Shown here in pieces: positions 20,315 through 31,779 of a DNA stretch of 64,000 nucleotides. The notes under the pieces are model-generated. The model saw only the letters and a program-made list of their open reading frames with translations, ran no database searches and was not told where the DNA came from. Made by a program: the position numbers and the translations under genes. The stretch's first letter is position 1. Every line of letters begins with the position of its first letter. This DNA comes from Pseudomonadota bacterium (GTDB lineage: Bacteria; Myxococcota; JACRCW01; JAFGSX01): assembly GCA_043821645.1 (NCBI GenBank), contig JBDRCO010000076.1, positions 130,965 through 194,964 of the forward strand, in the 5' to 3' direction.

Positions 20315-21889
20315 GTGCTCGCCGAGCTCATCCGGACAGCAACGACGATGACAGCTCCTGCTACCCCCAAGCCCCAGTCCGCTGCGCTCCGGGAACTGTA
20401 CCAGCGCATCTGTGAGCAGGTGGATGCACCCACGCTGGTGGTTTTGCTCTACGCGTCTCTCGAGCGCAAGCGCCTGGAGGGGCTGTATACGCGATTCGCT
20501 CCGCGCCAGGGGCCGCGGGTGCAGGGGTTGGCCAAGGAAGAGCTGGTCGGCGCCGTTGCCGGCTGGTTCTTCTCGTCGCTGGACGTGGCGCACGCTGTGA
20601 TCCGCGAACTCGACCGCGTCGCCAGCAAGGAACGCCACATCGTGGCCTCGCTCCCCGACGCCAGCATCGCCGAGCGGCTCGAACGCTACCAGGCGCTGGA
20701 TTTCAGGCGCGAACGCGCCAAGCTGGTGTGGGCCTTGCTCCGCGATGATCGCGCCGAGGCCCACGGCGTGGCCAGTGAGGTGTCTCGCGAGATGGTCGCA
20801 CTGGCCCAGGGTGATGTTTCCGAGGCGGTCCCTGCTGCGGGCGCCGACGATGACAGCCGACTTGCCTCGCTTCGAGACAAGCTCGCCAGCTACGAGAACG
20901 GGCTGCAGGAAGTGAAGGGGCGGGTCAAGGGACTCCAGGGTCAAGTTCAGCGCCTGGAGCGCGAGCGCGCCGAGCTCATCGTCACCATCGGCCGCAAGGA
21001 GAGTGCCTTGCGCGCCGAGGAGAGCCAGCGCCGCGCCGCCGACGAGGCCGTCCTGGCAGCGCAGCGTACGATCAGGGAACTCGAACATAGGCTCGCGGCC
21101 ATCGGCCCCGACGAGGTGCAACGGCTGGCCGAGGAGCGCAGCCAGCTGGAGCAGAAGCTCCGACGCCTGGAGAAGAAGGCCGAGCACACCCTGGAGACCG
21201 AGCGCCTGCGCGATGAGAGGGACGCCCTGCGGCTTCAGATCGAGGAACTCGAAGGGGCACAGATGCGCAGCCGCGACGAGCGGCAACAGCTGCTGCAAAC
21301 ACTGGTGGTGCGGGACCGCGCCACCCAGGAGCGTCTCTCTCACATGCGCGAAGCGCTCAAGGCCGCACGGCGCATGACCCAGACCACGGGCGACGCTGGC
21401 GAGCCGACTCCGCGCAACCGCGACGAGCGGCTCGGCATCTTCGTTGACGCAGCCAACGTCAGTGCCAGCGCCAAGCGTGCGCATGGTAGCCACTTCGATT
21501 TTCATACGGTGCTCGCCCTGGCCGGCGATCGAGAGCGTGTGGTGACCCTGGCCTACGTCGTCGACAACGGCCAGCCGGGCTTCCAGGCGTTCGCCTCGGC
21601 CCTGCGGCAAATGGGTTTCACGGTCAAGGTCAAGAAGCCCAGTGTGAGGCCGGATGGCAGCATCAAGGCCGACTGGGACATGGCCATCGCCATGGACATC
21701 GTGGAGGCCCGTCACCGCGTCGACACCGTGCTCATCGCATCGGGCGATGGCGACTTTGTGCCTCTGGTCCGACGCCTCAAGCGCTGGCGAAAGCGGATCG
21801 AGGTCACGGCCTTCGATCATGCGATCCATCCCGAGCTCAAGCGCACGGCCGATGCCTACTGGCCCCTCGGGGCGCAGTCCTTGACCTGA
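20315..21889 (+). CDS. Coiled-coil protein with C-terminal NYN (LabA/DUF88, PIN-like) domain
   Basis: IFVDAANV, KADWDMAIAMD, IASGDGDFVPLV and ELKRTAD. Long heptad-rich central region. Confidence 0.88.
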   Translation: MLAELIRTATTMTAPATPKPQSAALRELYQRICEQVDAPTLVVLLYASLERKRLEGLYTRFAPRQGPRVQGLAKEELVGAVAGWFFSSLDVAHAVIRELDRVASKERHIVASLPDASIAERLERYQALDFRRERAKLVWALLRDDRAEAHGVASEVSREMVALAQGDVSEAVPAAGADDDSRLASLRDKLASYENGLQEVKGRVKGLQGQVQRLERERAELIVTIGRKESALRAEESQRRAADEAVLAAQRTIRELEHRLAAIGPDEVQRLAEERSQLEQKLRRLEKKAEHTLETERLRDERDALRLQIEELEGAQMRSRDERQQLLQTLVVRDRATQERLSHMREALKAARRMTQTTGDAGEPTPRNRDERLGIFVDAANVSASAKRAHGSHFDFHTVLALAGDRERVVTLAYVVDNGQPGFQAFASALRQMGFTVKVKKPSVRPDGSIKADWDMAIAMDIVEARHRVDTVLIASGDGDFVPLVRRLKRWRKRIEVTAFDHAIHPELKRTADAYWPLGAQSLT

Positions 21890-22370: not shown

Positions 22371-22387
22371 GGGGGGGGGGGGGGGGG
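22371..22387. repeat. G17 homopolymer between rnpB and a convergent gene
   Basis: 17 consecutive G. Confidence 0.9.
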
Positions 22388-22400
22388 CCCTGCGCCGGAC

Positions 22401-23912
22401 TCACACCCGGTACAGCACGTCCAGGTAGCGCGCGAGCAGGTCGCCGACGATGCTGCGGACGGGGAGAGTGGCGGCCATGCCGTAGACCGGGGCCATGCCA
22501 CCCTGCGCATCGGGGTTGTCCCGGACCCACTGGACGCATTGCCACAGGTCGTCGACAAAACGCTCGGCCACACCTGGCTGGGTATGGCGCAGAGTGACGG
22601 CGAGGTGAACGCAGGCTGGCTTGTGCAAGCCATTGAGGTTCCAGCCCCGCTTTGTCATCTGATCCATCACCCGATAGACATCGAGCTCATCGGAACCGAA
22701 GGCGATGATCCACAGAGGGTCGCCCATGACCTTGAGGCCTGGGATGTCCTGGACACCGCGCTTGATCTTCTGTCCCGTGTCGACGATGCGTCGCGTGGCG
22801 TCGAGGTAGCCCTGCTCGCCGAGGCTGATCAGGGTGGCCCAGCACGCGGCGCTGAGGGCGCCAGGGCGGCTGCCCGCGAGGGTGGGCGAGAAGTACATGC
22901 CCCCGGGCCAGTCGGTGATCGTGTAGTACTGGAAGCGTCGCAGCGGCAGGTCGCGATAGAGCACCACCGACGTGCCCTTGGCCGAGTAGCCGTACTTGTG
23001 CGTGTCGGCCGACATGGAGGTCACACCCGGCAGCTCGAAGTCGAAGGGCGGCACGGCGTAGCCCAGCCGTCGTGCCCAGGGCAGCACGAAGCCACCCAGA
23101 CAGGCGTCGGTGTGAAAGCCGACACCGTGTTCCCGGGCCAGCTCGCTGAGTTCGGCGATGGGATCGATGATGCCGTGCGGGAAGGTCGGTGCCGAACCCA
23201 CGATGGCCACGGTGCGGCGGCTGAGGGCTGCGCGCACCGACGCGACGTTCGCCCGCATGCCCTCGTCGACAGGTGTGCGCACGATCTTCATGCCGAAGTA
23301 CTGTGCCGCCTTGTCAAACGCGGCATGGGCCGTGACGGGCGCAATGATCTCGGCGCGCCGCAGGCCGTGCTCGGCGCGGGCGCGATCCCGGTAGACCTTC
23401 ATTGCCAGCAGGATGCTCTCGGTGCCGCCCGAGGTGACGGCGCCGCAGACCTCGGCATCGGTGGCGCGATCGCTTCCCAGCATGTGCGCCGTCATGGACA
23501 CGATCTCGGCCTCGTACTTGGACGTCGATGGCCACACATCCGAGTGCAGCGGGTTGCTCTGCGAGTTCACGGCATAGGCCTGGTTGAGGAACTCGATGTG
23601 GGCAGGGTCCCCGTGATAGACCGCGCCTGACACGTAGCCTTGATCCCAGCGTGCGTTCTCCTCGCCTGTCATGGTCCGCATGTCCGCCAGCACCTTCTCG
23701 CGCGCCACGCCCTGTGCCGGCAGGCGCGCGTGGCTCGCGAAGCGGTCGCGGTAGGGGCGCGCGCTGGCCTCGAGGTCGTGCATGACCTCGGACATTTCCT
23801 TGTCCACCGCCCGCTGCACCTGGGGGATGCGGCGCAGCACCCGGAACAGGGCTCCCGCGACGCGGGGGTCGACGTGTTGACCGAGTGTGTCGACGACGTT
23901 CTTGAACTCCAT
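22401..23912 (-). CDS. Sphingosine-1-phosphate lyase-like PLP-dependent enzyme (group II decarboxylase family)
   Basis: [42 protein letters not shown] lysine in [16 protein letters not shown] and APVYGMA. Confidence 0.85.
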
Positions 23913-23926
23913 GGCGGTGCCCTCTT

Positions 23927-25504
23927 TCAGTGGCGGTTGAGTCTCGCGTGCAGGCCCTTGTTGCGCTTGTACAGCTGCAAGAACACCTCGAACATCTCGT
24001 CGTACACGGCGCGGTTGGTTGACGTCGGTGTGAAGGTCCGCGCGATGGGCACGCGCTCCGGGATGTCCTCGAGGCGCAGTCGCCCCAGTGCCATTGCCGC
24101 CAGGAGCCCGGCGCCGCGGGCATTGGCCTGGATCGGGTCCTTCACTTGCTGCACGTCGTGGTTCCACACGTCGGCAAAGATCTGGCACCACACGTCCGAG
24201 GTGGCACCGCCGCCAATGATGCGAATGGGGTCGAGGCGCCGCCCGGCAAAGCGTTCGACATGATGCAGGAGCCAGCGCGCGTTGAAGGCCACACCCTCGT
24301 ACACGGCCCGGAGCATGTGCTCACGGGTGGTCTGCAGCGAGATGTTGAAGAAGCTGCCACGAACCGAATGGTCCTCGACCGGGGTGCGCTCGCCGTAGAG
24401 CCAGGGCGTGAACAGCAGTCGATGGCTGCCTGCGGGCACGCTGGCCACGATCTGGTCGAACACCTTGTACACGTCGGGTTGGTGGGTCTCCTGCAGCAGC
24501 GCATCCTTGTGATAGACGATGTTGTCGCGCAGGAAAGTCAGGCAGGCGCCCGAGGTCTCCTGCTCGTCGGCGATGAAGTAGCGGCCGGGCAGTCCCGAGG
24601 GCAACGAGGCCATGTTGTGCAGGAGGTCGGTTTTCTTGAAGGGCACGTGACAGGTGAGCCACGACGAGGTGCCCACGTAGAAATGAGATTCATAATCGCG
24701 CACAGCGCCGGATCCGACAGCGGCCGAATGCAGGTCCGGTGTTCCCATGACCACCTGCACCGAGGGGTTCAGGCCCAGGGCGTCTGCCGACGCTGCGGTC
24801 AGGGTCCCCAATACCGCGTCGACGGGGAGCAGCTCCGGCAGCTTGGCGCGGTCTATCCCGCTGCGCCGGATCAGCAGATCACTGTAGTGCACGTTGCGGA
24901 TGTCGCGATTGTCGGTGACCCAGGTCAGCGTGATCGTGGCAAAGGACGCTGCCATGCGGCCGGTGAGACGCGCGTTGAGCCAGTCCATGGGCTCGAGCAG
25001 CTTGTGTGCCGCGCGGTAGATGTCCGGTCGCTGGTCCTTGAGCCAGAGCATGTGCGCGATGGAGTCCTTGCCCGAGTGCCCCGGCGCGCCCCCGGTCAGG
25101 CGCAGGTAAGCTGGTAACTTGCGCAGGCTATAGCCGTCGATGGCCACCAGACCGCCGGTCAGGCGCTTCATGTAGCGGCTGCCGCGCGAGTCCATCCAGA
25201 TGATGGCGCGGCACAGGGGCCTGTTGTCCCTGTCGACAGGCACTGTTCCCGACCACTGGGTGGTGCAGCACAAGGCGACGATGCGGTCACGCGAGGCGAG
25301 CTGTCTCGCGTGCAGGCGTGCCACGGCCGTGGTGATGGCTGTCCACCAGTCCTCGGGGTCTTGCTCGGCACCGCCACCGTCCAGCAGGTGCAGGGGAGTG
25401 GTCTCTATCTCGTGACCGAGCACGTCTCCCTGCATGGTCACCAGGGCGACCTTGGGGCCTGAGGTGCCCAGGTCGATGGCCAGCACGCAATCCTGTTCCG
25501 TCAT
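23927..25504 (-). CDS. FGGY-family carbohydrate kinase (xylulokinase-like)
   Basis: [44 protein letters not shown] and IIGGGATS. Confidence 0.9.
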
Positions 25505-25548
25505 CGTGCCCTCCCGTCGCTCGTCGAAGCCCGGTCCGCACTCCGTTG

Positions 25549-26538
25549 TCACGACACGAGGACCACCTTGCCCAGGTGCGCCATGGAGTTCATCTCCTGG
25601 ATCGCGTCCTGCACCTTCTCCAGCGGGTGGCACCGATGTACGCGGGGTGTCAGGGCGCCGGATGCGAAGTGTTGCATCAGCGCGTCGTAAATTGCGTCGA
25701 GGCGTGAGCGTGGCCAGCTCTCCAGCGCGCGGGTGAGCCAGAAGCCCTCGACGCGGCGCTGGCCAAAGATCAGGGCACCGGGATCCAGCTGCAAGGTCTC
25801 GAGGCTGAGCGCGCCGTACATGACCATCTGGCCACCCTCGCGCAGTGCCTTGACACAGGCGCGCCCGGTGGCGCCACTGACCGCATCGAGCGCCGCGTCG
25901 GCTCCCTCGCCACCTGTCATCTCCCGGGCGGCCAGGACCAGACCGCCCTGGCCCTCGACCACGACGTGTTCGGCCCCTGCGGCCTCCAGCGCGTCCACAC
26001 GGTCAGGACGGCGCGTGGTGGCGATGGCGCGGAGCCCGAGATGGCGGCAGATGTCGAGGGCTGCCAGCCCGGTGGGGGAGGTCGCAGCGGTGAGCACGAC
26101 CACCTGGCCCGCCTGCAGCTGCATCACCTCGACCAGGCAGATCCAGGCCGTGAGGTAACTGACGAAGGCTCCACCCGCCTGCGCGTCGTCGAGACGTTGA
26201 GGCGTCGGAAACACGTCCTGCGCGCGCACACACACCTTCTCGCACCAGGTTCCACTGCCGATGGCTGTGCCGTTGCGCAGCATCACGCGGTCTCCTGGCG
26301 TCAGGCCGTGGACCTCAGCGCCCAGCGCAGCGATCACGCCGGCGCCTTCGCGTCCGGGGATGGCTGGCAGGTCGGGCAGCCGGGCATAGCGGCCGAGGAC
26401 CATCAGGATCTCGGCGCGGTTGATGCCGCGCGCCGTGAGCGTCACCAGGACCTCGCCCGGGCCAGGACTGGGGTCCGGCAGATCTTCGATGACCAGCGCG
26501 TCAGGGCCTCCGTGCGCGTGTAGCCGCACTGCTTTCAT
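25549..26538 (-). CDS. NADPH:quinone oxidoreductase / MDR family
   Basis: MKAVRLHAHGGP, PGREGAGVI, SYLTAW and GKVVL. Confidence 0.88.
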   Translation of the reverse strand: MKAVRLHAHGGPDALVIEDLPDPSPGPGEVLVTLTARGINRAEILMVLGRYARLPDLPAIPGREGAGVIAALGAEVHGLTPGDRVMLRNGTAIGSGTWCEKVCVRAQDVFPTPQRLDDAQAGGAFVSYLTAWICLVEVMQLQAGQVVVLTAATSPTGLAALDICRHLGLRAIATTRRPDRVDALEAAGAEHVVVEGQGGLVLAAREMTGGEGADAALDAVSGATGRACVKALREGGQMVMYGALSLETLQLDPGALIFGQRRVEGFWLTRALESWPRSRLDAIYDALMQHFASGALTPRVHRCHPLEKVQDAIQEMNSMAHLGKVVLVS

Positions 26539-27209
26539 GTGTTGTCCTCGTTCTTGCTCGCAACCTGCGCCCCTCGCCAGCCCGTGGCGACGATGTAGAC
26601 CTCCTTGCTGTGGGTCCGCGTCGCCCGTGGCCGGATCTGGCGTACCTGGGCAAAATCCTTTTGCAGACCAAGGATCAGGTGTGGCACATCTCCGCCGTCA
26701 AAGATCTTGGCGACCACGCCACCTCCGGTGGACAGCAGTAAACTGGCAAGGCTCAGCGCCCTCTCGACCAGGGACATGGAACGGGCCTGATCCACGCCCT
26801 TGATGCCGGTGGTGTGTGGCGCCAGATCCGACAGCACGACGTCGAAAGCACCGCCCGCGGCTTCGCGGAGCCGTGCCGGATCTACGGTGAAGACATCCGC
26901 CTGCAGCGTGATAACGGTGGGTCCAAGTGACAGCGTCACCGGTTCGAGATCCACACCCACCACGCGGCCGTGGGGGCATATCGCGCGAGAGGCCAGCTGG
27001 AGCCAGGCTCCGGGCGCACAGCCAAGATCGAGCACGCGCGCCCCGGGCTGGATCACGCGGGTGCGGGCCTGGATCTCATCGAGCTTGAATACCGAGCGCG
27101 CCGCAAATCCCTGTTCCCGGGCCTTGTGGTAGTAGGCATCGTGCCGCTCGTAGGAACCACGCTGTTTGCGGTCACGACCGCCGGGTGCTGGGCGTCGTCG
27201 ATCTGTCAC
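26535..27209 (-). CDS. rlmE: 23S rRNA (U2552-2'-O)-methyltransferase RlmE/FtsJ
   Basis: ARSVFKL, LDLGCAPGAW, VLSDLAP, AKIFDG and SKEVY (K-D-K-E tetrad). Confidence 0.93.
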   Translation of the reverse strand: MTDRRRPAPGGRDRKQRGSYERHDAYYHKAREQGFAARSVFKLDEIQARTRVIQPGARVLDLGCAPGAWLQLASRAICPHGRVVGVDLEPVTLSLGPTVITLQADVFTVDPARLREAAGGAFDVVLSDLAPHTTGIKGVDQARSMSLVERALSLASLLLSTGGGVVAKIFDGGDVPHLILGLQKDFAQVRQIRPRATRTHSKEVYIVATGWRGAQVASKNEDNT

Positions 27210-27212
27210 GAT

Positions 27213-28022
27213 CTACCTGGGAACCACCAGCACCTTGCGTGCTGCGCTGCCACTGATGTCCTCGGCCACCACCACCACCTGTTCCTCGCCCGGGGACAGC
27301 GCGGCCATGAACTCGCCTCCGGAGTCGGGGTACGTCACCTCGCCGTTGACGTACACCCGGCTTCCCGGCGTTACGTGCCCGCTGACCGTGGGCAGTTCAC
27401 CCGGTCGGGTGCGGGCTGCCACCTGCACCTTGAGGGCGAGGTCGGGCACCTGGTCTGTGACCACGGCCGGGGCCAGGGGAGAGAGGATGAAGACCTGACC
27501 GGGCTTGACCTCGGTCGGTCGGTCGTCGCCCTCGTGAACCAGGGCGGTTCCCTCGACACAGAGCCCGCACAGGAGGCCCTTGCCGTCGGCGATGATGTGG
27601 AAGGACCCCGGGAGCAGCTCGACGTGACTTGCCGCAGCCAGGGATCCGACGGTGGTCCCGGCGGAGTGGTCGACCTCGATGTGCAAGCGCCCGTTATCGA
27701 GCAGCCACTGTGGACCCGTCGCTGCTGCTCGGCGGGAACGGATCCCAGTGCTGTCGTACAGACGCAGGGTGCCCCGTGCCGTCTCGACCGAGGCGCTCGA
27801 GAAATCGCCGGTCCGGACCTCGGTGTCCGCTGCGATCCAGGATGCCGGCGTGGCGCGTTCGGGACGCCCTCCACTGGCGCGCACCTCGACCGTGCCCACG
27901 ACCTCGCGCACCACGCCCGCCCGGCCCCGGTAACCCAGCGGATGCCCCTGCTTGACCAATGTGACCCCGACCAGTGCCAGGGCAGCCACCAGCATCGCTG
28001 CCGCAGCAATCTTGAGCCTCAT
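27213..28022 (-). CDS. FecR-like beta-domain membrane/exported protein
   Basis: N-terminal hydrophobic segment, VVGTVEVR..EVRTGDFSSASV, VEGTALV, and a C-terminal Ig-like domain. Confidence 0.6.
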   Translation of the reverse strand: MRLKIAAAAMLVAALALVGVTLVKQGHPLGYRGRAGVVREVVGTVEVRASGGRPERATPASWIAADTEVRTGDFSSASVETARGTLRLYDSTGIRSRRAAATGPQWLLDNGRLHIEVDHSAGTTVGSLAAASHVELLPGSFHIIADGKGLLCGLCVEGTALVHEGDDRPTEVKPGQVFILSPLAPAVVTDQVPDLALKVQVAARTRPGELPTVSGHVTPGSRVYVNGEVTYPDSGGEFMAALSPGEEQVVVVAEDISGSAARKVLVVPR

Positions 28023-29467
28023 CGCCGTCTCCGTCTGATGCGGGAGGCATGATGCGCGTCTTTGTCCGACAGCGTCAACCCGCCTGGGGGCTGCAGGGGC
28101 GAGACGGGCAGGCTCGGAAGATCCCGGTACCAGGGGGAGGCCAGCCGGGGGTTGAAGGTGCCGAAGCGGAGGCCGGGGTGGCGCGACGCCAGTTCGAGAA
28201 CAAAGCCGCGCAGACCCAGCCTCTGCCCACGCTGAGTTGGCAGCATGGCGTTGTAGTGCACTGGGTCCACGCACAGGTTGCGCAGCTGCACCATGTCAAG
28301 GACGCCGTCGGCATGCAGCGCGCTCACGGCCTCGAGTTCGTCGTGGCGATCGGTCCAGCCAGGCCAGAGCAGCAGGTTGATCGATGTGAAAGCACCGGCG
28401 TCGTGCGCCGCCCGCAGACTGGCGCGGACCTCGTCGAGACCGTAACCCTCGGGACGGAAATAGGCCTGGAACACCTCGCTGTCGAAGCTGTTGACGGACA
28501 CGCGCACTGCACCGACGCCTGCCCGAACAGCCTCGGAGACCACGTCGGGGCGGGAGCCATTGGTGTTGAGGTTGATGACACCGCGCGCGGTCTGCTTGCG
28601 GGCGAGTTGCACGCCCTGGATCAGGACGTCGCTGTTGATGGTTGGCTCGCCTTCGCAACCCTGGCCGAAGCTGACCATGGCCTCGGGAGCGTTCTCGACG
28701 TGGTCCACGATGACCTCGGCGATTTCCTCGGCGGTCGGTGTGAAGCGCAGCCGGAACTGGGGAACCGGAGCGTTCCACTCGGGCGCTCGCGACAGGCAGC
28801 CCAGGCAGGCTGCGTTGCACGACGGGGCGATGGGCAGCGCCCCCTCCCAGCGCTGGTAGAAGATGTTCTGGGAGCAGCGACAGTGGTAATCGGTGGCGCA
28901 GGTGGCGAGCTGCGTCAGCACGCGGTTGTCTGGATGCGCCGCCAGCCGCTCAGCCACACGCGCGTCGAGGTCGGGCAGGTCGTAGAGCGAAGGGTCCCAG
29001 CGCGACAGCTCATCGACCTGGAACATGGCCGCGAGATTGCCCCCGGATCCCGATCCTGCCGCACAGTACCCCCACAGCGGCAAGCCTGCTCTCGGCCCGC
29101 CATCGTTGGCACTGCGCACCGCCGGGACATGTGTGCGCACGTGCCCCGGGGGAGGGTGGACAGCCACGGCGCGCGCCGTGAAGGGGCCATCGCCACCGTC
29201 GAAGCGCTCGACCACCTCGAGTCGGCCGCTCGCGGGGTCGAAACCCAGCGGCCTCGTGCCCGGGAGTTGCATCAGCTCCCAGTGCAGCGGCAGTGGCCAC
29301 ATGTCCTGTGGTTCGGCAGGCCGCGCCGAGACTCCGTCGTCGATGGCCAGGTCCAGCTGCGGGTGCTCGAAGACCTGGCCATCTGGAGCAGCCAGGAGCA
29401 AACCGATGCGTGTGCGACCCGCCGGCGAGGCCACGCGTCCTGGTTTCCGACCACGATGTCGACTCAT
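28019..29467 (-). CDS. Radical SAM protein of unknown function
   Basis: CNAACLGC (CxxxCxxC), SFGQGCEGEP and NLNTNGS. Confidence 0.88.
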   Translation of the reverse strand: MSRHRGRKPGRVASPAGRTRIGLLLAAPDGQVFEHPQLDLAIDDGVSARPAEPQDMWPLPLHWELMQLPGTRPLGFDPASGRLEVVERFDGGDGPFTARAVAVHPPPGHVRTHVPAVRSANDGGPRAGLPLWGYCAAGSGSGGNLAAMFQVDELSRWDPSLYDLPDLDARVAERLAAHPDNRVLTQLATCATDYHCRCSQNIFYQRWEGALPIAPSCNAACLGCLSRAPEWNAPVPQFRLRFTPTAEEIAEVIVDHVENAPEAMVSFGQGCEGEPTINSDVLIQGVQLARKQTARGVINLNTNGSRPDVVSEAVRAGVGAVRVSVNSFDSEVFQAYFRPEGYGLDEVRASLRAAHDAGAFTSINLLLWPGWTDRHDELEAVSALHADGVLDMVQLRNLCVDPVHYNAMLPTQRGQRLGLRGFVLELASRHPGLRFGTFNPRLASPWYRDLPSLPVSPLQPPGGLTLSDKDAHHASRIRRRRR

Positions 29468-29498
29468 GGCTGCGCTCGCCCGGAACAGCAGTCTGGAT

Positions 29499-31610
29499 TC
29501 ACTTGCACTGCAGCTTGATGGTCTGTCTGTACTCGGGCTCGCCTTCAACCAGGCCCATGCGCGTCGAGTAGGTCGTGCAGCGCTTCTTCTTGATTTCCAG
29601 TACAGGCGGTGCAGCCTGCGGGTCGAGGTGCTTGAGGACGGCTGGAGTGGTCCCCTTCTCCTCACCATTGAGCAACACGGTGGCACCTGTGGGATCGGAG
29701 TCGATGAAGGCCGTGACGAAGCGGGACTCGAGCTTGGCCTCGATGCGCTGGGTCTGGTCCGTCTCCAGCGCCACCGTGCTCTTGTGGGGGCTGTAGTCTT
29801 CGAGCTTCAGCTCGACGGTGATGTCGGCTCCGATGGTCACATTCTCGATGACCGCCGGGGTCACCTTCTCGGTGTCCCGCCCCTTGACGAAGATGCGTGC
29901 TCCGGGTGGCGTCGACACGACGTCGAGGCGGCCTACCGGGTCCGGGAGCTTCTTCATCTCGATGGGAATGTTGAGTGTGCCGCTTTTCGGGACCGCCACA
30001 GAACCAGAGAAGGGCACGTAGCCAGACTTCTGGGCCGCCAGATCATGGGGACCGGCCTTGACGTCGGGCACGGTCAGGCTTCCGTCCACAGTCGTGCCCA
30101 CCAGGGTTCCATCGAGAAAAACCTGCACGTCACTCGGTGGCTGGCAGGTGATGAAGATCGTGCCCTTGCCGATGAGGAACAACGACAATAGCAGCCCGAG
30201 TCCGACGGTGCCGAGGAGCGCACCCAGGGCGATGCCGATCAACCTCAGTGGGCCGGATTTTCCCTTGGCCCCAGCGGCAGGGATCCGGATGGCAGGTCGG
30301 ATCGCGCCCTGGTTGGACGGCAGCGGCCTCTTTCCCGAGGCGTTGCTGCCATCTCGCCGCAGGCCGGGTTGCGAGTTGTCCCGTGCTGCAACCCGCGAGG
30401 GCACAGAGCTGTTCTGATCGGTCCTGGCGGTGGCAAAGGAACCGGTGCTTGCCGTCGACAAACCCTGCTGCGGCGCCGGGGCGCCCATCTCCTCGGCGAG
30501 AGCCGCCATGACCGCCGCGCTCGAGCGATCCAGTTCCGGCGGTACCTGCACCTGCGCGGTGGGCTGATCGGTGATCGACGCCGGTTCGTCGGGCATCTCG
30601 ATCTCGCGAAAGGCCTCCATGCGCAGCCGCTCGCGGTCGTAGTCGACGGTGAAGTTCTCGCGCAGGTACTTGCCCATGTCCATGCGGTTGGACGGTTTGC
30701 CGTGCAGCAGCATGAAACGCTGCAGTGCCTCGCTGAGGTCCGACGCCCACTGGTAGCGGTCGTCGGGATCCTTGGCCAGGGCCTTGAACATGATCTTTTC
30801 GAGCTCGTCGGGAATGTCCTTGTTGACGATGCTCGGTGGTGTCAGCTCGACGTTGCGCACCATCTCGAGGAGCGAGAAGTCGCTGTCGGCCTTGAAGGCG
30901 CGCTGGCCCGTGACCAGCTCGTACAGCACCACACCCATGGCGAACACGTCGGCGCGCTGGTCAATGGGCAGGCCGCGCACCTGTTCAGGTGCCATGTAGC
31001 CGAACTTGCCCTTGAGGATCCCGGCCTGGGTCTTGGAAGCCTTGCCCGCGGCCTTGGCGATGCCGAAGTCGATGAGTTTGACCTCGCCTTCCCACGACAC
31101 GAGGATGTTCTGCGGGCTGACGTCGCGGTGCACGATCTTGAGGTCGACGCCGAAGTTGTCCTTCTTGCGGTGGGCGTAGTCGAGACCTTCGGCCAGGTTC
31201 TGCACCATGTAGCAGGCCAGGGGCACAGGCAGGGGCTGCTTGAGGTGGCGCTGGTGCTGCCAGATGGTCTTGCCATCCTTGCCAGGGACGTATTCCATGG
31301 CAATGTAGTAGGCGTCGTCGTTCTTGCCGAGTTCGTAGACTTGGCCGATGTTCGCGTGCTGGAGCAGGACCGTGATCTTGGCCTCGTCCTTGAACATCGT
31401 GATGAAATCAGTGTCCTCGGCCACGTGCGGAAGGATCTTCTTGATGGCGACGATCCGCTGGAAGTCCTCGGCGCCAAAGATCTTGGCTCGCCAGACCTCG
31501 GCCATGCCACCGGACGCGATCCGGTCGAGCAAGAGGTAGCGGCCAAACTTGACCGGCTTGAGCTTCTTGCCGCCCTTGTCGCCTTTGTCGCTCGCCGGGG
31601 CCACTGGCAT
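29499..31610 (-). CDS. Membrane Ser/Thr protein kinase with PEGA domains
   Basis: IASGGMAEV, VAIK, HRDVSPQN, DFG and YMAPE, then a TM and three PEGA-like repeats. An alternative TTG start lies at 31664. Confidence 0.93.
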   Translation of the reverse strand: MPVAPASDKGDKGGKKLKPVKFGRYLLLDRIASGGMAEVWRAKIFGAEDFQRIVAIKKILPHVAEDTDFITMFKDEAKITVLLQHANIGQVYELGKNDDAYYIAMEYVPGKDGKTIWQHQRHLKQPLPVPLACYMVQNLAEGLDYAHRKKDNFGVDLKIVHRDVSPQNILVSWEGEVKLIDFGIAKAAGKASKTQAGILKGKFGYMAPEQVRGLPIDQRADVFAMGVVLYELVTGQRAFKADSDFSLLEMVRNVELTPPSIVNKDIPDELEKIMFKALAKDPDDRYQWASDLSEALQRFMLLHGKPSNRMDMGKYLRENFTVDYDRERLRMEAFREIEMPDEPASITDQPTAQVQVPPELDRSSAAVMAALAEEMGAPAPQQGLSTASTGSFATARTDQNSSVPSRVAARDNSQPGLRRDGSNASGKRPLPSNQGAIRPAIRIPAAGAKGKSGPLRLIGIALGALLGTVGLGLLLSLFLIGKGTIFITCQPPSDVQVFLDGTLVGTTVDGSLTVPDVKAGPHDLAAQKSGYVPFSGSVAVPKSGTLNIPIEMKKLPDPVGRLDVVSTPPGARIFVKGRDTEKVTPAVIENVTIGADITVELKLEDYSPHKSTVALETDQTQRIEAKLESRFVTAFIDSDPTGATVLLNGEEKGTTPAVLKHLDPQAAPPVLEIKKKRCTTYSTRMGLVEGEPEYRQTIKLQCK

Positions 31611-31779
31611 TGTGCCTGTCTCTCTGGGATCGTGAGGATCGCCGTCCGTCAAAAAATACTCCAAATCCGTCGTCGGTCAAACCAGATAGATGGAATACCC
31701 TGGCGCAGCGCGGCACAGGGAATCTTCCTTGCCGGCTCGAGTGGCTTCGGCTATCACAGCGAGATGTCAGTCGTGGTCA

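Follow-up and report, generated by a model that had tools for sequence, protein, structure and literature searches.

Do a bacterial FGGY-family kinase and a relative of sphingosine-1-phosphate (S1P) lyase, encoded side by side, form one catabolic pathway, and if so for which substrate? The question is raised by a row of minus-strand genes in a stretch of 64,000 nucleotides (the window; positions 130,965 to 194,964 of contig JBDRCO010000076.1 in assembly GCA_043821645.1, filed as a Pseudomonadota bacterium and placed by GTDB in the Myxococcota). In this row the gene for a medium-chain dehydrogenase/reductase (MDR) is followed by the kinase gene and then by the gene for an enzyme that depends on pyridoxal 5'-phosphate (PLP) and resembles S1P lyase (SPL, EC 4.1.2.27). 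An earlier note on the DNA had read all three genes as a candidate module for the breakdown of sphingoid bases or amino-alcohols. We find that the conserved unit consists of two genes, kinase and lyase, not three. The linkage of these two genes and the families of the enzymes they encode support a catabolic pair, the reductase drops out of it, and a sphingoid or other amino-diol substrate is what we infer for it. The pair is probably a phosphorylate-then-cleave pathway of the sphingoid type, known in kind, with a non-homologous kinase as its new element. A search of the full-text literature, covering papers outside the subscription-only ones, returned no description of an FGGY–SPL pair or of such a bacterial sphingoid-base kinase.

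Linkage of the kinase and lyase genes

In the window the kinase gene (23927-25504, minus strand, 525 amino acids) directly precedes the lyase gene (22401-23912, minus strand, 503 amino acids). The host genome is a 7.07-Mb assembly of 140 contigs, 94.7% complete, that has a single relative at family level and two at class level; with 40 relatives it makes up a set of 41 genomes. Matches to the kinase at E<=1e-40 are present in 6 of these genomes and matches to the lyase family at E<=1e-30 in 14. Three genomes from two other families of the same phylum (G005, G031 and G035) carry a kinase with 55% identity directly before a lyase with 61–63% identity. Like the host, they also hold a second lyase paralogue elsewhere, 42–45% identical. 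In the host this SPL-family paralogue (G000:C31:6686-7987, L188:6530-8089, 43% identity) lies between a DUF6483 gene and small unknown open reading frames (ORFs), and no kinase stands beside it. Paralogues of this type occur in 14 of the 41 genomes, and the host copy is uninformative about pairing.

A wider survey was centred on each gene in turn. For the lyase, scanning one genome per species yielded 578 relatives, and the best 80 loci were taken; their titles name Myxococcota-type bacteria, Chloroflexota, Spirochaetota/Leptospirales, Desulfobacterota, Terriglobia and other metagenome-assembled genomes. In 73 of these 80 loci the lyase is preceded on its own strand by a kinase orthologue (48–63% identity), with a median gap of 57 bp and a gap of <=150 bp in 58 of the 73. 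Among the seven loci without a kinase, five have <1600 bp on both flanks, one has a short upstream flank and nothing downstream, and one (L102) has 2.2 kb upstream of the lyase that hold no kinase. For the kinase, 80 loci were kept from metagenome contigs. The lyase lies downstream in 33 of them and upstream in 14 (47 in total), 8 are uninformative, and 25 lack a lyase, 11 with room for it on both sides and 14 on one side. Since the lyase is found on either side of the kinase, the pair survives a change of gene order, and since the adjacency is conserved in so many loci of both scans (73/80 and 47/80), it is not due to chance. The linkage between FGGY kinase and lyase that the earlier note had described is thus strongly conserved.

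Single loci show further arrangements. One 831-residue ORF (L069:3603-6098) fuses kinase residues 7-419 to lyase residues 86-503. We rejected this fusion as evidence of coupling, as the C-terminal nucleotide-binding part of the kinase is missing and the ORF is probably the result of a deletion or a mis-assembly. In another locus (L151:3-2996), a 997-residue ORF reads from the FGGY kinase in frame into an MFS transporter domain (Pfam, residues 552-930), which may have arisen by fusion or by loss of a stop codon. A Chloroflexota locus (L080:1080-9431) holds, in a row, a 43%-identical lyase paralogue, two MFS_2 symporters of the glycoside/lysolipid type, the kinase and the StSPL-type lyase, so called after the SPL of Symbiobacterium thermophilum. 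The amidohydrolase that follows the pair there was considered as a stand-in for a ceramidase and rejected: it scores above the cut-off for imidazolonepropionase HutI and is unrelated.

The reductase, which the earlier note had counted as the third member, has another distribution. The MDR gene (25549-26538, minus strand, 329 amino acids) encodes ADH_N and ADH_zinc_N domains of the quinone-oxidoreductase/enoyl-reductase type; it scores 195.1 bits against the PIG3 subfamily model (TIGR02824, cut-off 296.8), and it matches PDB entry 4EYE, VAT-1 and mitochondrial enoyl reductase at E values of 4e-36 to 1e-33. At E<=1e-50 an orthologue is found in the host genome only (1/41) and in none of the 40 relatives, the three pair-bearing genomes among them, and the flanks of the pair in those three hold no MDR gene. 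No match (E<=1e-10, >=150 residues) was found in the 80 lyase-centred loci, and of the 148 full-length kinase genes collected, the window's own is the only one that adjoins it. We therefore reject the MDR as a member of the conserved unit. It is a lineage-specific local neighbour, co-transcribed with the pair at most, and might, or might not, use the aldehyde product as a substrate. The corresponding alternative is a three-enzyme module in which the lyase receives its substrate from the kinase, and the 2-enal arising from a 4-ene sphingoid base is reduced by the MDR. This would suit an enzyme of a presumably zinc-free type that resembles enoyl thioester reductases at E of ~1e-33 and whose gene lies 44 bp upstream of the kinase in the same orientation. 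Besides the distribution just given, the start of the MDR gene overlaps the stop of an rRNA methyltransferase-like gene, and sphinganine and phytosphingosine yield saturated aldehydes, for which no ene-reductase is needed. We regard the three-enzyme module as improbable.

No third gene is widespread at the pair, as judged from ORF clustering over the 80 lyase-centred loci, a Pfam search of immediate neighbours and a scan of 143 flanking proteins. The Pfam search of the genome loci covered 104 of 123 immediate neighbours, and the 19 left out were short or overlapped the pair. Transporters among the 104 comprise EamA (3), MFS-type (8, including 3 PUCC) and DctP (2). Other neighbours are AhpC in 4 spirochaete loci, TetR regulators (3) and class II aldolases (3, or 5 by tblastn, these 5 upstream); the remainder are unrelated. 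Ceramidase and fatty-aldehyde dehydrogenase families do not recur among the neighbours sampled. In the lyase-bearing metagenome loci the 143 flanking proteins fall into 116 Pfam families, of which the commonest, MFS_1, has only 5 members. A DUF1295 membrane protein is encoded directly after the lyase in 12 genome loci and 2 metagenome loci, and no homologue was found in the host genome. DUF1295 shares a Pfam clan with steroid and enoyl reductases. These genes hint that some lineages add a reductase-like gene, and in the 12 genome loci this speaks to some degree for a three-enzyme module.

Identity of the two enzymes

The earlier note had called the PLP enzyme S1P-lyase-like, and comparison with all solved structures bears this out. 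The best match is StSPL (PDB 3MAD) with E=4.6e-199 over lyase residues 43-503, followed by SGPL1 of human (8.8e-133), the SPL of Burkholderia (4.1e-122), Dpl1p of yeast (6.3e-113) and the SPL of Legionella (2.9e-72); among amino-acid decarboxylase structures the best, of the MfnA type, reaches only E=1.9e-24. About two-thirds of the residues are identical to StSPL, judged by eye from the printed alignment. For StSPL, the review PMC10243590 lists K311, H310, D274, H201, G168, T169 and S353 as residues of the PLP Schiff base and cofactor site, and A103, Y105, N126, H129 and K317 as contacts of the substrate phosphate or of phosphoethanolamine. Mapped through the 3MAD alignment, the first group is identical in the window lyase as K306, H305, D269, H196, G163, T164 and S348, and the second as A97, Y99, N120, H123 and K312. 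All 12 published binding residues are thus retained, and each of them is kept in 76-78 of the 78 aligned lyases of the clade.

The window enzyme is of the true SPL type and is not a simple amino-acid decarboxylase, because SPL matches far outscore decarboxylases and because the 12 binding residues are kept. S1P or dihydro-S1P would then be cleaved to phosphoethanolamine and a fatty aldehyde, by analogy with StSPL, the enzyme for which the activity is demonstrated: StSPL degrades S1P in vitro and in blood (PMC3148216). The earlier note had itself named a simple decarboxylase as the alternative. In a specific form of that alternative, a group II amino-acid decarboxylase acts on a phosphorylated amino acid and no retro-aldol cleavage takes place. 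Pfam and NCBIfam offer decarboxylase models only for this protein (PF00282, and MfnA with 217.6 bits against a cut-off of 299.4), yet the match to SPL structures surpasses that to any decarboxylase by 175 orders of magnitude, and the phosphoethanolamine-binding residues of StSPL are all in place. The decarboxylase is hardly credible as an explanation.

In the kinase, Pfam detects nothing but FGGY domains (FGGY_N, E=1.1e-37; FGGY_C, E=1.2e-27) and no DAGK_cat domain. The protein may function like a sphingosine kinase, yet it does not belong to the diacylglycerol (DAG)-kinase-fold family. Its best curated model is XylB (TIGR01312), with 264.9 bits against a cut-off of 380.25, and its nearest solved structure is E. 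coli XylB (PDB 2ITM), with only E=5.7e-39. Five specificity-determining positions of FGGY kinases, R83, E84, Y135, D245 and F270 in GlpK numbering, are given by Zhang et al. (PMC3245297). We mapped them by aligning the clade with only two outgroup kinases, E. coli GlpK and XylB. They correspond to W84, S85, Y125, D257 and W282 of the window kinase, an assignment that is less secure for Y125 and W282 given the two outgroups and safer for W84 and S85, which lie within a conserved motif. The clade as a whole reads W, S/A, Y, D, W at these positions, compared to M, H, F, D, V in XylB and R, E, Y, D, F in GlpK. The catalytic Asp (GlpK D245), here D257, is invariant in 147 of 147 clade kinases. W103 is also kept, and the clade has an insert of its own of ~20 residues near positions 127-153 with a conserved GKD..AHIL motif.

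By these features the kinase is not a xylulokinase, because it scores below the XylB cut-off and carries W-S/A-Y-D-W in place of M-H-F-D-V, a signature at odds with xylulose. Aromatic and small residues take the place of the polar ones that bind sugar, which would fit a hydrophobic substrate or a cation–pi box for an ammonium group. The earlier note had named activity on xylulose or other sugars alone as refuting its reading; the model score and the signature both argue against a sugar kinase of known type. A broader form of the same idea sees in the kinase an ordinary enzyme for pentuloses or polyols and lets the lyase serve an unrelated process, so that their adjacency reflects co-regulation or history with no shared metabolite. 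In its favour are the best family model, which is xylulokinase, and the lyase missing from 25 of the 80 FGGY-centred loci. The pair is, however, kept across phyla, in two gene orders and with short gaps, the kinase fails both the XylB cut-off and the signature, and the neighbours scanned include no xylose-isomerase-type partner. We consider this explanation very improbable.

Candidate reactions and substrates

In the proposed pathway the FGGY kinase would phosphorylate the C1 hydroxyl of a 2-amino-1,3-diol, and the StSPL-type lyase would then cleave the C2–C3 bond of the 1-phosphate by a retro-aldol reaction, releasing phosphoethanolamine and an aldehyde. The kinase would here fill the role that sphingosine kinases of the DAG-kinase fold have in eukaryotes, without being homologous to them. 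We infer both that the lyase receives its substrate from the kinase and what this substrate is; the kinase-then-lyase logic as a whole is quite probable. The likeliest substrates would be free long-chain sphingoid bases that the cell acquires from outside, for food or for detoxification. Among the natural 2-amino-1,3-diols known, sphingoid bases are much the most common. In the 94.7%-complete host genome, a PF00155 query gives 6 matches at E<=1e-20, whose best NCBIfam assignments are ordinary aminotransferases or HisC, and no alpha-oxoamine synthase of the Spt/KBL/BioF type is among them; because none was found with this query, a sphingoid substrate would be external and not home-made. A lipid would also fit the closeness of the lyase to the S1P-acting StSPL and, by analogy, the narrow hydrophobic tunnel that leads to the SPL active site (PMC10243590). 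With moderate confidence, we read the pair as a route in which 2-amino-1,3-diols, in all likelihood scavenged sphingoid bases, are phosphorylated by the kinase and then split by the lyase.

Several observations weigh against a sphingoid substrate or against a dedicated pair. No lipid theme emerges from the genes around the pair (143 flanking proteins in 116 families), and the recurring transporters of small-solute type and class II aldolases suit a soluble substrate at least equally. The taxa that carry the pair are, to our knowledge, not known as sphingolipid users. The kinase is not bound to the lyase, which is missing from 25 of 80 kinase-centred loci, although 11 of these have space for it on either side. 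The aromatic signature might form a cation–pi box that holds an ammonium group, and not a lipid-tail pocket, and any specificity assigned to this FGGY clade is that of a candidate, as the characterised FGGY kinases all act on small soluble sugars or polyols. In addition, one of the sister gene contexts described below includes a RuBisCO-like enolase, which suggests small molecules.

The same kinase-then-lyase logic could instead serve a small water-soluble compound that a transporter brings in, a 2-amino-1,3-diol or an amino-polyol of the serinol or 2-amino-2-deoxy-alditol kind, with S1P cleavage as a side activity of the lyase. A soluble substrate would fit the habit of the FGGY family, whose known substrates are all small and soluble (PMC3245297). 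It would also fit the solute-type transporters that often flank the pair (those counted among the 104 neighbours and the two MFS_2 genes of the Chloroflexota locus), the class II aldolase genes upstream in 5 loci, and the partners in the sister clusters, a glutamate-1-semialdehyde (GSA)-aminomutase-like aminotransferase and an MtnW-like RuBisCO-like protein, both of which have small known substrates. Several points count on the other side. StSPL, which the lyase so closely resembles (about two-thirds identity, by eye), handles the lipid S1P, and the SPL active site is reached through a hydrophobic tunnel (PMC10243590). The flanking transporters are varied and inconsistent. Moreover, sphingoid bases are widespread, whereas we know of no abundant natural soluble 2-amino-1,3-diol. 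A soluble substrate therefore appears somewhat unlikely to us.

The kinases of the clade that lack a lyase offer a view of the kinase reaction from other partners. In four loci (L157, L161, L163 and L173; for example L161:681-6245) the kinase is followed by a class III aminotransferase, a RuBisCO-like protein and an unknown protein of 354-385 residues for which no Pfam or PDB match was found; this four-gene row is possibly an undescribed pathway. The aminotransferase alone accompanies the kinase in L125, L165 and L166, and in the spirochaete loci L042 and L060 it accompanies a second copy of the kinase. A saccharopine-dehydrogenase-like gene precedes the kinase in L137:3714-6566, L142:2-3338 and L144:3701-7080 and in the relative G026 (L005), and a PNPOx-like gene follows the kinase in L142 and L144. 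L137 also carries a RuBisCO-like gene and an old-yellow-enzyme gene on the opposite strand. The aminotransferase was considered as an ethanolamine-phosphate phospho-lyase, which is not supported, as it is GSA-aminomutase-like. The RuBisCO-like protein is nearest to 2,3-diketo-5-methylthiopentyl-1-phosphate (DK-MTP-1-phosphate) enolase (E=1.3e-70) and is absent from the host genome. In a FastTree tree of 148 kinases rooted on GlpK, the lyase-less kinases are nested inside the lyase-linked majority, with local support of 0.97-1.0 at the nearest nodes and weak support deeper. The aminotransferase-linked kinases keep the specificity signature (W 8/8, S 8/8, Y 7/8, D 8/8, W 8/8).

The kinase reaction in these loci would be the same, with a product whose head group is CH2-O-P, CH-NH2, CH-OH. 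The PLP lyase would split this head group, and an aminotransferase or amine dehydrogenase would turn it into CH2-O-P, C=O, CH-OH. The latter head group is one on which RuBisCO-like proteins and enzymes of the class II aldolase family act. By family, all the alternative partners are amine- or ketose-1-phosphate-type enzymes, acting on amines or on head groups of the 1-phospho-2-keto-3-hydroxy (or 2,3-diketo) kind. Because these partners suit the deamination product of a 1-phospho-2-amino-3-hydroxy compound, the lyase-less contexts give independent, indirect support for an amino-diol kinase. As a tentative and possible extension, the FGGY clade might be an unrecognised family of amino-alcohol kinases that includes the first bacterial sphingoid-base kinase, its product being the hub for three breakdown routes: the lyase, an aminotransferase with a RuBisCO-like enolase, and a saccharopine-dehydrogenase-like amine oxidoreductase. 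If true, this would also explain what StSPL-type lyases naturally do in free-living bacteria.

The gene row in the window and comparison with known systems

The row comprises four minus-strand genes by ORF listing and domain scans, and the G+C content around it is 66-68%. It begins with an FtsJ/RlmE-like rRNA methyltransferase gene (26535-27209, minus strand; FtsJ E=3e-43, and 163.4 bits with the rrmJ model, under its cut-off), whose stop codon shares the sequence ATGA with the MDR start, a 4-bp overlap read directly from the sequence. The MDR gene is thus coupled to a housekeeping-type methyltransferase gene at least as tightly as to the kinase, a point on which the earlier note is silent. 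A 44-nt spacer (25505-25548, minus strand) with a Shine-Dalgarno-like GGGAGGG before the kinase ATG separates the MDR and kinase genes, and a 14-nt spacer (23913-23926, minus strand) with a Shine-Dalgarno-like AAGAGGG before the lyase ATG separates kinase and lyase, both read directly. The three co-oriented genes and the gaps of 44 and 14 bp are therefore as the earlier note had described them. Within the row, a consensus scan of the minus strand gave neither promoter-like nor terminator-like sites. The lyase is the last gene of the row, since the next gene, encoding an NYN-domain protein (20315-21889, plus strand), is convergent. Between the two, 14 nt past the lyase stop, begins a run of 17 G on the plus strand (17 C on the minus strand; 22371-22387), which may be a homopolymer artefact of assembly or else a structured spacer. 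The genes upstream of the row include those for a radical-SAM protein with a long N-terminal extension (28019-29686) and a 721-residue Ser/Thr kinase (29499-31664), with no visible link to the kinase–lyase pair.

If the kinase-then-lyase route for sphingoid bases is real, it shows how bacteria of sediment, soil and groundwater recycle or detoxify the breakdown products of sphingolipids. It would add lipid or amino-alcohol specificity to a kinase family thought to be limited to sugars, and it would supply soluble enzymes for making or removing sphingoid-base phosphates. The kinase is fixed beside the lyase in many phyla, and for StSPL the authors of PMC3148216 state that its function in its own bacterium is still unknown.

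Among characterised proteins, StSPL (PDB 3MAD, 3MAF and 3MAU) is closest to the window lyase, with a full-length match and all listed cofactor and phosphoethanolamine residues identical. It comes from another phylum, and we count as a further likeness that no N-terminal membrane helix is reported for it (PMC3148216). The kinase shares the two-domain FGGY architecture and the catalytic Asp with E. coli XylB and its family, XylB being the nearest solved structure, but it falls below the equivalog cut-off and differs in its specificity residues and in the clade-specific insert of ~20 residues. The RuBisCO-like protein of the sister clusters matches MtnW-type proteins (E=1.3e-70), but its partners are an FGGY kinase and a GSA-aminomutase-like aminotransferase in place of methionine-salvage genes. 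Routes through ethanolamine-phosphate or aminopropanol-phosphate phospho-lyases combine APH-type kinases with class-III-fold phospho-lyases that eliminate phosphate. As in the window pair, phosphorylation activates an amino-alcohol before a PLP enzyme acts, whereas the pair uses an FGGY kinase and a PLP enzyme that would cleave a C–C bond. In the eukaryotic route from SPHK1/2 or Lcb4/5 to SGPL1 or Dpl1p, the proposed two steps and the lyase family are the same. The differences are that the window kinase belongs to the FGGY family (ASKHA fold) and not to the DAG-kinase fold, that both window proteins appear soluble, and that their genes lie in one operon.

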